A stretch of 64,000 bases of DNA from Escherichia coli (GCF_013122565.1 NZ_CP053258.1); one strand, 5' to 3'; counted from the first letter of the stretch, positions 9,145-61,640 are shown. Notes: generated from the sequence alone by a model not told the origin. A program made the numbers and translations.

Positions 9145-9816
9145 ATGATGAAGTTAGTTCACTTATTTATGGATGAAATCACTATGGATCCTTTGCACGC
9201 CGTTTACCTGACCGTAGGACTGTTCGTGATTACTTTTTTTAATCCGGGAGCCAATCTCTTTGTGGTAGTACAAACCAGCCTGGCTTCCGGTCGACGCGCA
9301 GGGGTGCTGACCGGGCTGGGCGTGGCGCTGGGCGATGCATTTTATTCCGGGTTGGGTTTGTTTGGTCTTGCAACACTAATTACGCAGTGTGAGGAGATTT
9401 TTTCGCTTATCAGAATCGTCGGCGGCGCTTATCTCTTATGGTTTGCGTGGTGCAGCATGCGCCGCCAGTCAACACCGCAAATGAGCACACTACAACAACC
9501 GATTAACGCACCCTGGTATGTCTTTTTTCGCCGCGGATTAATTACCGATCTCTCTAACCCGCAAACCGTTTTATTTTTTATCAGTATTTTCTCAGTAACA
9601 TTAAATGCCGAAACACCAACATGGGCTCGTTTAATGGCCTGGGCGGGGATTGTGCTCGCATCAATTATCTGGCGAGTCTTTCTTAGTCAGGCGTTTTCTT
9701 TGCCCGCTGTGCGTCGTGCTTATGGGCGTATGCAACGCGTTGCCAGTCGGGTTATTGGTGCAATTATTGGTGTATTCGCGCTACGCCTGATTTACGAAGG
9801 GGTGACCCAGCGGTGA
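9145..9816 (+). CDS. yahN: LysE/RhtB-family amino acid exporter YahN
   Basis: 223-aa polytopic membrane ORF MMKLVHLFMDEITMDPLHAVYLTVGLFVITFFNPGANLF... Confidence 0.85.
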   Translation: MMKLVHLFMDEITMDPLHAVYLTVGLFVITFFNPGANLFVVVQTSLASGRRAGVLTGLGVALGDAFYSGLGLFGLATLITQCEEIFSLIRIVGGAYLLWFAWCSMRRQSTPQMSTLQQPINAPWYVFFRRGLITDLSNPQTVLFFISIFSVTLNAETPTWARLMAWAGIVLASIIWRVFLSQAFSLPAVRRAYGRMQRVASRVIGAIIGVFALRLIYEGVTQR

Positions 9817-9832
9817 GCAGATAATTTACTCT

Positions 9833-10078
9833 CTACGTAATCAACCTGATTTGCCGAATCCCGACCATCGGCGATGATAGCCCCCGTAATGCGTGGTCCT
9901 TATTTCCGATAAGTTTACTTGAGTCTTTAGCTTCCCATTTCAGCCCACTCTCCCCTGTGTGGGCTTTTTTCATTGGTCTGACCCGTCCTGAATAGCCAAA
10001 CAATGGCAATGTTCCACTTTGCAGGGATGATAATAAGGGGATCTGATTCAGAAGAGTTTTGAAAAGTTGGACCGCCAT
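9833..10078 (-). CDS. yahM: small hypothetical protein (81 aa from internal Met; yahM position)
   Basis: ORF track 9833..10108; assignment by position and length only; contains the yahN terminator and overlaps a tRNA-like element, so coding status is doubtful. Confidence 0.4.
   Translation of the reverse strand: MAVQLFKTLLNQIPLLSSLQSGTLPLFGYSGRVRPMKKAHTGESGLKWEAKDSSKLIGNKDHALRGLSSPMVGIRQIRLIT
9943..9970 (+). terminator. rho-independent terminator downstream of yahN
   Basis: Stem gcccac/gtgggc with 10-nt loop followed by TTTTTT. Confidence 0.6.
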
Positions 10079-10148
10079 CGAGGCCTCGAACCCCGTACCA
10101 TACAACAATCCTGGTTGTCGTCTGCTCTTCCTGATGAGCTAATGGCGG
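10068..10148 (-). other. tRNA-like element (possible tRNA pseudogene or relic attachment site)
   Basis: Minus strand: acceptor stem CCGCCAT/ATGGCGG (7 bp), D-arm GCTC-ATCAGGAA-GAGC, T-arm CGGGG-TTCGAGG-CCTCG, encoded CCA; anticodon region atypical (ACAAC-CAGGATT-GTTGT, A at position 33) with extra nucleotides. Confidence 0.5.
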
Positions 10149-10490
10149 TTTTTGATATGAGCCTTACAGCATATTTTCTGTCAGGCTTGAGTGCGATGCG
10201 TAAGATACAGAAAAGACCCCACACAAACATGATGGAATTATGATTTTTTTCATATGAATGTCAACCCACACATTCACAAAACATCTGCATAAGATCATTT
10301 TTTATACCCCGCATGGCTGCGAAACCACTGCTGGTGCTTTTTTAAGCGAATTGTCGCCGATCACAACAAAATATCGGCGAAAAAAGAGATGGAATGCCAG
10401 TTAGCATACAGATATACAGATGAAATGATTACCTGCATTGCGATTCACTCTCTGGTGGAATAACAACTTGCAGGTGGAACCCTTTCTGAA

Positions 10491-11306
10491 CTAAAGAGTG
10501 TAGCGGATTTTAACGTGCTTATTTACAGGATAATATCTGTCACCTAATTCCTGCACTCTATTAGATATCCATTCATTTAATCGTGCGTCATCTCTGTATG
10601 TTTTTACGTCCAGAACAGAGAGCAATAACATCACCAGTGATTCAGGAAAAACAGGGTAGATATTTTTTAAGTGTAATAATAATCCATGCGCAAGCGCCTG
10701 CTTAATGGGCGCGTCTGTCTCCGGAATAGACGACATTTCGCGAAGCCATTTTTCCACATGCATACACTCTTTCCCTTTAGGGAAAAGTCTCAGCAAAGGC
10801 ATATGGTGTTCAAGAAGAATACATTTGCAATCTGTTCGCACTGAATCGATAAACTGCACTAATTTCTTAAGCCCGGTAAAGCGTCCAGCCTGCACGTTTG
10901 CTTTAATATCAAGAAACGCATCATCCTGGTCATATACCCAAACTGTCCCTTTTTGATTTTCAAGTATGCGAAAAACAAACTTAACCGGGTGATCAGGGTA
11001 ATCCATCCAGTCATAAAATCCAGGGAAATCATTAAACTGCACATTTATGGTGAGTGCGTTATCGTCTGACCACTCACAGTCTCGTACGGCAGCCATGAGA
11101 TGAATGAGTTTGTCGTCATCGACTAAATCATCACGACAATCATAAGGATAATCATAATATTGTTTAATCAAAACCTTGAATATATCGACACAGGAAACCA
11201 GGGAGCTTTTGATATCCTCTGGTAACTGATTGTTTTTAACCGTATTAAGTATGCTTTGTTGCGTGTATGGCATCAAATTATTGTGCGGAGCTTTTAATGA
11301 TATCAT
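10491..11306 (-). CDS. yahL: hypothetical protein YahL, AT-rich gene
   Basis: 271-aa ORF MISLKAPHNNLMPYTQQSILNTVKNNQLPEDIK...; visibly lower GC than neighbours; no recognisable motifs. Confidence 0.7.
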   Translation of the reverse strand: MISLKAPHNNLMPYTQQSILNTVKNNQLPEDIKSSLVSCVDIFKVLIKQYYDYPYDCRDDLVDDDKLIHLMAAVRDCEWSDDNALTINVQFNDFPGFYDWMDYPDHPVKFVFRILENQKGTVWVYDQDDAFLDIKANVQAGRFTGLKKLVQFIDSVRTDCKCILLEHHMPLLRLFPKGKECMHVEKWLREMSSIPETDAPIKQALAHGLLLHLKNIYPVFPESLVMLLLSVLDVKTYRDDARLNEWISNRVQELGDRYYPVNKHVKIRYTL

Positions 11307-11548
11307 CGCGATCTCTCTTAAATAAAAATAAACGTCGCAGATAATAAAGCTCTGATTAAACCAGGCACTATCAGAAATCGCTCATAACTAACGTATGAAG
11401 TATTGTGTACTGGAGGGAGTTAATTTAACAATTTGAATTTACGTTATAGGTTTTACCACTACTTTGATATTATTTCGCTCTCCTTAACTAAAAAGTTAAG
11501 TGGAGAGCGAAGTTAATATGTTAAACCACCGGGTATTTATTAATTTTT

Positions 11549-12598
11549 TCAGTCTGTTAGTGTGCGATTATCGATAACAAAACGATATTTCACATCACCA
11601 CGCAGCATTCGCTCATAGGCTTCATTAATTTGATCGGCCCGAATCATCTCTATATCAGCCACGATGCCATGTTCGGCGCAAAAATCGAGCATCTCCTGTG
11701 TTTCTGGAATGCCGCCAATCATAGAACCGGCTATCGCACGGCGTTTCATGATCAGGTTGAAAACTTCCGGCGATTTATGCGGTGTCGCAGGCGCACCAAC
11801 CAGCGTCATGGTGCCATCGCGCTTCAGCAAGGTGGTAAAATCGTCGAGATTATGTGGCGCAGCTACTGTATTCAAAATGAAATCGAAACTCTTCAGATGA
11901 GCCGCCATCTCATCGGCATTGCGTGAGTTAACAACTTCATCGGCCCCCAGGGCTTTTACCGCTTCGCGTTTTGACTCAGAAGTGGTAAATGCCACCACAT
12001 GTGCCCCCATCGCGTGGGCCAGCTTAATCCCCATATGTCCCAGACCGCCGATGCCGACCACGCCCACTTTTTTACCCGGCCCGGCCTGCCAGTGACGTAG
12101 CGGCGAATACGTGGTGATCCCTGCACACAACAAAGGAGCCACCGCCGCCAGCTGCTCTTGCGGGTGACGAATACGCAGAACATATCGCTCATGTACGACG
12201 ATCTGTTGTGAGTAGCCGCCCAGAGTATGGCCCGGTTCGTCCGGCGTCGGCGAGTTATAGGTGCCGGTCATGTGATCACAGTAGTTTTCCAGCCCGTCTT
12301 CACACTCTTCGCAATGTTTACAACTGTCGACAATGCAGCCGACACCGACCAGATCGCCCGGCGCATGTTTTTCAACCTGATCACCAACGGCTACCACACG
12401 CCCCACAATTTCATGACCCGGTACGCAGGGGTAAACCGTCCCCGCCCACTCGGAACGGACCTGGTGGAGATCGGAATGGCAGACGCCACAGTAAGCGATT
12501 TCGATTTTGACATCATGCGGTCCCGGTTCACGCCGGGTGATATCCATCGGTTCAAGTGGTTGTTTAGCGGAATATGCACCAATAGCCTTGATATTCAT
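11549..12598 (-). CDS. yahK: NADPH-dependent aldehyde reductase (zinc alcohol dehydrogenase family) YahK
   Basis: Start at MNIKAIGAYSAKQPLEP (349 aa) with AGGAG 8 nt upstream; Zn-ligand motif GHEIVG and CGVCHSD. Confidence 0.88.
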   Translation of the reverse strand: MNIKAIGAYSAKQPLEPMDITRREPGPHDVKIEIAYCGVCHSDLHQVRSEWAGTVYPCVPGHEIVGRVVAVGDQVEKHAPGDLVGVGCIVDSCKHCEECEDGLENYCDHMTGTYNSPTPDEPGHTLGGYSQQIVVHERYVLRIRHPQEQLAAVAPLLCAGITTYSPLRHWQAGPGKKVGVVGIGGLGHMGIKLAHAMGAHVVAFTTSESKREAVKALGADEVVNSRNADEMAAHLKSFDFILNTVAAPHNLDDFTTLLKRDGTMTLVGAPATPHKSPEVFNLIMKRRAIAGSMIGGIPETQEMLDFCAEHGIVADIEMIRADQINEAYERMLRGDVKYRFVIDNRTLTD

Positions 12599-12869
12599 TG
12601 CATTCACTCCTGTTCGAAGAGGTATCTGGATGATGTGAGGAACGTCTTTGCAGCAAAACTCGCTCATTCAATATAGCCAATGAATGGTTGCCCGTGATGG
12701 GCTCTGAGACGTCGATACCGGAGAGTTTAATGACCAATAGTGGTGTCGTTTTTCGTGGCAGATCACACTTTCTGGCACCAGCGATATCCCTTTTCCACCT
12801 TAAAACCGGGGCGATATCGTGACTGGCGAATTAGACTGGCGTGAAATTCAATTATTACGCACACGCCGT

Positions 12870-43732: not shown

Positions 43733-43808
43733 TGGTGCCGATAAGAGGAGTCGAACCTCCGACCTTCGCATTACGAATGCGCTGCTCTACCAACTGAGCT
43801 ATATCGGC
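43733..43808 (-). tRNA. thrW: tRNA-Thr (anticodon CGU)
   Basis: Minus strand GCCGATATAGCTCAGTTGGTAGAGCAGCGCATTCGTAATGCGAAGGTCGGAGGTTCGACTCCTCTTATCGGCACCA; full cloverleaf, anticodon loop TTCGTAA, encoded CCA. Confidence 0.92.
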
Positions 43809-61501: not shown

Positions 61502-61640
61502 GGTCGGATGCGGCGTGAACGCATTATTCGGCCTTCGGTTCGCGTACAGATTTGTAGGCATGATAAGACGCGTCAGCGTCGCATCAGGCATCAGCGCACA
61601 AATGCTGGATGCGGCGTAAACGCCTTATCCGGCCTACGCC
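61502..61640. repeat. BIME (three REP units) between yafJ and gmhA
   Basis: ggtcggatgcggcgtgaacgc..., gtaggcatgataagacgcgtcagcgtcgcatcaggca, tgctggatgcggcgtaaacgccttatccggcctacgcc. Confidence 0.75.

Follow-up and report, generated by a model that had tools for sequence, protein, structure and literature searches.

The tRNA-like sequence of xtpA

The locus described here lies within a 64,000-nt segment of an Escherichia coli chromosome, to which we refer as the window and from whose first letter all positions are counted. The genes prpR, yahO, yahN (9145-9816, plus strand), yahM (9833-10078, minus strand), yahL (10491-11306, minus strand) and yahK (11549-12667, minus strand) follow one another in this order. 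On the minus strand, at 10068-10148, stands an 81-nt tRNA-like sequence (hereafter, the element) that an earlier note on this DNA had described as a near-complete cloverleaf; ARAGORN called a tRNA at exactly the same coordinates, and the cloverleaf fold, the homology to phage genes and the near-invariance presented below delimit the same object. Unrecognised in that note was the fact that a 60-codon open reading frame (ORF) on the minus strand, at 10048-10230, runs through the whole tRNA-like sequence and is an annotated gene, xtpA. In the MG1655 reference record xtpA (b4845) occupies 345252-345434, between yahL and yahM, its product is identical to that of the ORF in the window, and ARAGORN places the element at 345334-345414, wholly inside the gene. 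The element is hence already known, and its detection here is a rediscovery: it is the tRNA-like sequence carried by the leaderless xtpA transcript of E. coli. With respect to xtr/xtpA of K-12, the locus, the sequence and the 60-aa product are the same and the object itself shows no difference. The product is named XtpA in RegulonDB v12 and, according to the title of the study by Muto, Goto, Kurita, Ushida, Soma and Himeno (J Biochem 2022;171:459), a leaderless transcript encodes XtpA, which is reported to affect the levels of GcvB in K-12. Literature searches combining yahM with tRNA or small RNA, or using argN and pseudo-tRNA, gave nothing on the element, and the link to xtpA came via a reference list. 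Taking all the evidence together, we consider it likely that this known sequence descends from the argN lineage of phage tRNA genes, that it is kept by purifying selection and that the feature under selection is its RNA fold.

A promoter scan revealed a sigma-70 promoter upstream of the ORF on the minus strand (TTGACA-16 nt-CATAAT, 10237-10264), in which 11 of 12 hexamer positions match and which differs within the genus at no more than 2 of its 28 columns. The A of the xtpA ATG (10230) lies 7 nt past the -10 hexamer, with 6 nt between CATAAT and ATG, a spacing that is consistent with a leaderless xtpA mRNA whose predicted +1 is the A of the AUG. The transcript would then consist of 82 nt, followed by the 81-nt tRNA-like sequence and by the region annotated as yahM. 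A Reg-Seq preprint, which gives no coordinates, reports that the yahM promoter is active and repressed by IHF, and calls yahM completely uncharacterised. In the 82 nt that precede the element, the RNAfold prediction for 10040-10232 contains a hairpin (GCCUGACAG-loop-CUGUAAGGC, 10160-10187, minus strand); both ends of its stem are changed in E. albertii, from G-C to A-U, which is weak evidence. We also asked whether the xtpA RNA might pair with region R1 of GcvB, either as its sponge or as its target, and rejected this possibility: the best duplex reached -19.4 kcal/mol, a value equalled or bettered by 93% of 472 genomic control segments.

The structural features of a tRNA that had been described previously could all be read directly from the sequence. 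The acceptor stem comprises 7 bp without mismatch (CCGCCAT/ATGGCGG) and is followed by U73 and an encoded CCA; the D arm (GCUC-AUCAGGAA-GAGC) comes with U8, A14, G18, G19 and A21; and the T arm (CGGGG-UUCGAGG-CCUCG) has, by sequence, the T54-Psi55-C56 and A58 of a canonical elbow. The anticodon arm is where the element departs from a tRNA. Between position 26 and the T stem there are 27 nt, versus 21-22 in a normal tRNA, and the canonical arrangement, that is, a 5-bp stem right after position 26 closing a 7-nt loop with U33, is absent. In the minimum-energy fold given by RNAfold, which is a cloverleaf, the anticodon stem has 7 bp (ACGACAA/UUGUUGU) and the loop 6 nt (CCAGGA). ARAGORN, which gives the element the label tRNA-Ser(gga) and has the anticodon shifted to position 38, uses an alternative register in which a 5-bp stem is offset by 4 nt and closes the loop CAGGAUU with A33, and this is the loop that the earlier note had singled out as aberrant.

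The Rfam tRNA model (RF00005) did not match the element, either at its gathering score of 29 bits or at E<=10 on 97 nt, and other Rfam families gave chance-level matches only. The generic model misses the element because its anticodon arm is abnormal. The earlier note had proposed that covariance-model scores at background would speak against the element; such scores are indeed what we obtained, but the test is misleading in this case, since the rebuilt anticodon arm defeats the model while the cloverleaf itself stands. Judged by its sequence, the element is a true tRNA derivative and not a chance cloverleaf, because it matches phage genes of the argN type (E=6e-18) and is nearly invariant across the genus.

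The same structure bears on the idea that the element is a working, decoding tRNA, either a tRNA-Ser(GGA), as called by ARAGORN, or an unusual suppressor. The intact acceptor, D and T arms, the encoded CCA, the conservation and the ARAGORN call itself would all fit such a role. However, there is no U33, the anticodon arm contains either 4 extra nt before a 5-bp stem or a stem of 7 bp that closes a 6-nt loop, a tRNA-Ser should have a long variable arm, which is lacking here, Rfam finds no tRNA even at the permissive threshold given above, and PGAP makes no tRNA call on chromosomes. The aberrant anticodon arm rules out ordinary decoding, bearing out the earlier opinion that this is probably not a functional tRNA, and we regard a decoding function as scarcely credible.

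Inside the element (10083-10111, minus strand), the anticodon loop also contains an AGGA that is followed, 7 nt on, by an AUG corresponding to Met44 of XtpA. This internal AUG could start a 17-codon ORF (MVRGSRPRWRSNFSKLF), which is open also where the long XtpA ORF is closed.

Kinship with phage argN genes

A total of 32 phage records match the element, including phiP27, mEp460, TL-2011c and 933W-like Stx2 phages. Identity is highest for phiP27 and the plasmid pHX138 (85% over 82-89 nt, E=6e-18) and ranges from 74 to 81% in the other phages. In the plasmid prophage pHX138.261ft_1 (86% over 89 nt) the matching gene is annotated as tRNA-OTHER and lies between a tRNA-Ile and a tRNA-Arg. In the phages it is invariably the central gene of an ileZ-argN-argO cluster that matches, with Q or a DNA methylase gene upstream and stx or lysis genes downstream. 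Canonical argN is a 77-nt tRNA-Arg(UCG) that scores 53.6 bits on the Rfam model. The phiP27-like phages carry an aberrant argN form of 81 nt that neither ARAGORN nor Rfam recognises, and this variant, with which the element has derived characters in common, is its closest relative: both are 81 nt long and have the D loop AUCAGGAA and a GACGAC that opens the anticodon arm, in the 5' half of its stem, whereas the remainder of the anticodon arm differs. With the argN lineage in general the element has in common the acceptor stem, the D and T arms, U73 and the CCA. On the strength of these comparisons, we assign the tRNA-like sequence to the argN lineage, which is one of lambdoid and Shiga-toxin phages. 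The chromosomal copy retains the acceptor, D and T arms of argN together with the CCA, but its anticodon arm, like that of one of the phage variants, is rebuilt (a 7-bp stem and a 6-nt loop without U33) and is unable to decode.

The setting of the element is not that of its phage relatives. It is chromosomal, has its own promoter, lacks the ileZ and argO flanks and lies between yahN and either yahL, yahK or yahJ instead of between ileZ and argO. Homology to the phage cluster ends at the edges of the element. We looked for an ileZ remnant upstream and for an argO remnant downstream, and discarded both, as the flanks aligned with it no better than shuffled sequences did (P=0.94 and P=0.57, respectively); an apparent flank match to the phage cluster in a MAFFT alignment was not significant either.

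Furthermore, the element is invariant while the argN slot of phages comes in several degenerate forms that arose independently, some of them with a broken T loop. Three odd forms could be distinguished besides the phiP27 type and the mEp460 type, the latter being among those whose T loop is broken, and the gene in this slot is unannotated in both phiP27 and mEp460. In the Yersinia phage YeP1 a related gene, annotated as tRNA-Pseudo-TTG, has Q upstream and tRNA-Met and tRNA-Gly downstream. From Yersinia phages, this suggests that a comparable tRNA slot exists outside Escherichia phages.

Conservation and the nature of the preserved product

Conservation in the genus was assessed on an alignment of 13 Escherichia sequences, in which variable columns were counted for each segment. 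Only 1 of the 81 columns of the element varies, and 2 of the 28 columns of the xtpA promoter, compared with 29 of the 88 alignment columns that cover the 82 nt preceding the element, 117 of 235 (50%) in the rest of yahM and 167 of 672 (25%) in yahN. Identity to E. albertii is 100% for the element and 83% for yahN. Within E. coli, the main allele of the element accounts for 4821 of 5170 records, and a further 301 carry a second allele, T68C, which is that of the O157:H7 lineage, turns a G·U of the T stem into G-C and is synonymous in xtpA. The same comparison yielded only 2963 identical records out of 5168 for the preceding 82 nt, and 1804 out of 5115 for an 81-nt control stretch of yahM.

The position of the element is also old. 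Scanning species-representative genomes with YahN located it downstream of yahN in E. coli, Escherichia sp. SCPM-O-B-8794, Escherichia sp. E1V33 and E. albertii, but not in Citrobacter, Salmonella or Edwardsiella, where yahO-yahN precede other genes. The neighbour on its other side varies, being yahL, yahK (in E1V33 and in E. coli without yahL) or yahJ (in E. albertii). The comparison of genomes shows that the element has been downstream of yahN since before the split of E. coli and E. albertii. One strain, E. coli DETEC-S792, is a natural knockout, its element being interrupted after position 62 by an inserted IS1.

These figures place the element, at the level of its nucleotides, under strong purifying selection. 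Whether an RNA or a peptide is being preserved can be approached through the codons of xtpA. Across the genus, the 27 codons that fall within the element show no third-position variation other than T68C, whereas the first 27 codons of the gene vary at 11, 9 and 7 sites in first, second and third position, respectively. Codon 4 is TGG in E. coli, AAG in E1V33 and a TAG stop in E. albertii and the SCPM-O-B-8794 lineage; parsimony at this codon favours an ancestral stop, and the long XtpA ORF would thus have opened once the RNA element was in place. Homologs of XtpA are found only in Escherichia, and in E. albertii gene callers place the start of the ORF further downstream. Of 10 sampled E. coli sequences, 9 have an intact ORF, which in 3 of them ends 3 codons early; a metagenome assembly has a 1-nt deletion in xtpA. 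The ORF of the 60-aa XtpA is probably specific to E. coli and younger than the RNA element that it overlies.

The second ORF that touches the element fares no better. As the earlier note had pointed out, the 5' end of yahM overlaps the cloverleaf: its ATG (10078) sits in the 3' strand of the acceptor stem, and most of the annotated ORF (81 codons, 9833-10078, minus strand) falls within the 3' portion of the xtpA transcript. Variable sites are spread over the three codon positions of yahM as 9/8/6, versus 9/2/27 in yahN, where 27 of 38 are at third positions. The O157:H7 lineage has a nonsense mutation at codon 12, strain RIVM_C040753 has a frameshift and is marked as frameshifted by PGAP, and three other Escherichia lineages have stops or indels that are not multiples of three. 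Since it lacks third-position bias and is disrupted in these several ways, yahM is very probably not a conserved protein-coding gene, so the doubt raised earlier as to its coding capacity was justified.

One explanation of these data is that the XtpA peptide is the sole functional product of the locus and that the tRNA-like shape is a fossil of its origin, devoid of any role as RNA. This would agree with the curation of b4845 as a gene and with the title of Muto et al. (2022), as well as with the intact ORF in most of the sampled E. coli and the synonymous nature of the common O157 variant. Yet a constraint on the peptide does not readily account for 27 codons whose third positions are invariant save for a change that improves a stem, when those of yahN vary freely. 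Nor does it readily explain why codon 4 is a stop in E. albertii and the SCPM-O-B-8794 lineage when the element is still 100% identical, or why the 27 N-terminal codons vary 11/9/7 by codon position and, within E. coli, are far more polymorphic than the element. We therefore find the peptide-only explanation unlikely. The element lacks third-position variation apart from T68C, and the ORFs that overlap it, yahM and the N-terminal part of xtpA, are not conserved outside E. coli, from which we infer that the constraint acts on nucleotides and, most simply, on the tRNA-like fold. The comparative data thus point to selection on the RNA, whereas the published function, by the title of that study, is that of a peptide.

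The selected feature would hence be a tRNA-shaped RNA fold. It would work within the transcript, as one of its structural modules, or else on its own, as an RNA the size of a tRNA that RNase P cuts out and that is trimmed at its 3' end to the encoded CCA. Excision is conceivable because the element has kept the features recognised by RNase P, by the 3' trimming enzymes and by the CCA-adding enzyme, and because it is followed by an AU-rich trailer. As a more specific proposal, which we put forward tentatively and hold to be possible rather than probable, a phage argN-type tRNA would have been domesticated in an Escherichia ancestor, given its own promoter and later overprinted by the XtpA ORF, mainly in E. 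coli; the preserved unit would be the tRNA-shaped RNA and not the peptide, and it would act through tRNA-binding factors such as RNase P, the CCA-adding enzyme and possibly a synthetase or a tRNA-targeting toxin.

Several observations weigh against an RNA fold of phage origin as the selected feature. The title of the 2022 study credits the peptide, and not the RNA, with function, and within E. coli nearly all sampled sequences have an uninterrupted XtpA ORF, the only common variant being synonymous, which allows for constraint on the protein in this species. The element is absent from about 5% of E. coli genomes and from Escherichia sp. MOD1-EC7003, and is hence dispensable. Because the element does not vary, no covariation can be obtained, and invariance alone cannot tell a constraint on the RNA fold from a combined constraint on RNA and peptide. 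The z-score of the cloverleaf against shuffled sequences is modest (-1.9). Processing by RNase P into a free 81-nt RNA may take place; the only hint of a small species is the presence of 'yahM' among the differentially expressed RNAs of a small-RNA-enriched library. Finally, no phage copy with the chromosomal anticodon arm was found among the 14 and 120 loci retrieved in two IMG/VR scans or among the 32 phage records, and transfer may have gone from phage to chromosome or the other way.

A chromosomal tRNA-shaped RNA with no part in translation has a counterpart in the tRNA-Other of Bacillus cereus (Rogers et al. 2012, PMC3399842), a pseudo-tRNA with a reported regulatory role. Both lie beside variable DNA; tRNA-Other has been linked to regulation, and for the E. 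coli element its conservation and the yahM reads of the small-RNA library are indirect hints of a comparable role. The two differ in sequence, host and origin, and tRNA-Other borders a pathogenicity island and, unlike the element, does not lie within an ORF.

Surroundings of the element and significance

The earlier note had interpreted the locus as a possible relic integration site, that is, a host tRNA, now decayed, at which a small islet with yahL and yahM had attached after horizontal acquisition. The element does resemble such sites in being a tRNA-shaped sequence at a break of synteny: yahO-yahN are common to Escherichia, Citrobacter and Salmonella and everything beyond these genes differs. 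Besides, yahL is AT-rich (its GC content is 0.38-0.43, in line with what had been noticed before), ORFan and variably present. Against this interpretation, no second copy of the 3' end of the element could be detected in the window, even allowing up to 2-3 mismatches, and no integrase is annotated nearby, the annotated neighbours being yahN, yahO, prpR, yahL, yahK and yahJ. The variable genes (yahL and yahK) are on the 5' side of the element and not on its 3' side, where they would be expected for a tRNA attachment site. Moreover, the element is selected rather than decaying and has its own near-consensus promoter, and its relatives are cargo tRNAs of phages and not host tRNAs used as targets. 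An origin of the locus as an attachment site is, in our view, very improbable.

The link between yahL and the element, which was part of that interpretation, did not stand either. The gene comes and goes independently as a clean indel, whose exact boundaries delimit a block of 837 bp on the minus strand (10478-11314, containing the ORF at 10491-11306), and about 1160-1170 of 5426 E. coli genomes lack yahL and keep the element. The presence/absence polymorphism of yahL is thus separate from the tRNA-like sequence. There are no obvious direct repeats at the borders of the block. Homologs of YahL are found only in Escherichia, and the one of the SCPM-O-B-8794 lineage is 80% identical where its neighbours are at 94-97%. 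Neither YahL nor YahM belongs to any family in PHROGs, NCBIfam, PADLOC or Pfam, and tblastn yielded no match to YahL in phages.

On the other side of the element, a hairpin followed by a T-run (9943-9972, plus strand) is the likely intrinsic terminator of yahN. It lies inside the yahM ORF, where it had been located before at 9943-9970, could be aligned as a hairpin of the terminator type, and is kept in E. albertii and Escherichia sp. SCPM-O-B-8794. The pair yahM-yahN has been listed as a convergent excludon, which fits with an xtpA transcript that reads into the yahN terminator region from the opposite side. The approximately 155 nt past the yahN stop codon (9817-9972, plus strand) are well conserved in E. 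albertii and SCPM-O-B-8794, and the adjacent part of yahM (9976-10067) is not.

Two further RNA matches were recognised in the window. A genuine tRNA-Thr(CGU), scoring 71 bits on the Rfam model, lies at 43733-43808 on the minus strand, at a distance of 33.6 kb from the element. This gene is presumably thrW, the attachment site of prophage CP4-6 in K-12. At 61557-61634 on the minus strand, the Rfam family of the nucleoid-associated noncoding RNA 4 (naRNA4) is matched above the gathering score, with 74.5 bits.

As the xtpA element was known, what remains of interest is its phage argN ancestry and the evidence that the target of selection is the RNA and not the annotated peptides. What is new is this apparent selection on the RNA: that it is invariant under ORFs that are closed in sister species suggests that the published model, centred on the peptide, may be incomplete. 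As for yahM (b0327), it looks like a spurious ORF within the 3' part of the xtpA transcript, which bears on lists of the y-ome and on studies that report 'yahM' expression. Finally, the element can be traced to the argN slot of phages and would exemplify a phage tRNA that has been kept by its host for a purpose other than decoding.

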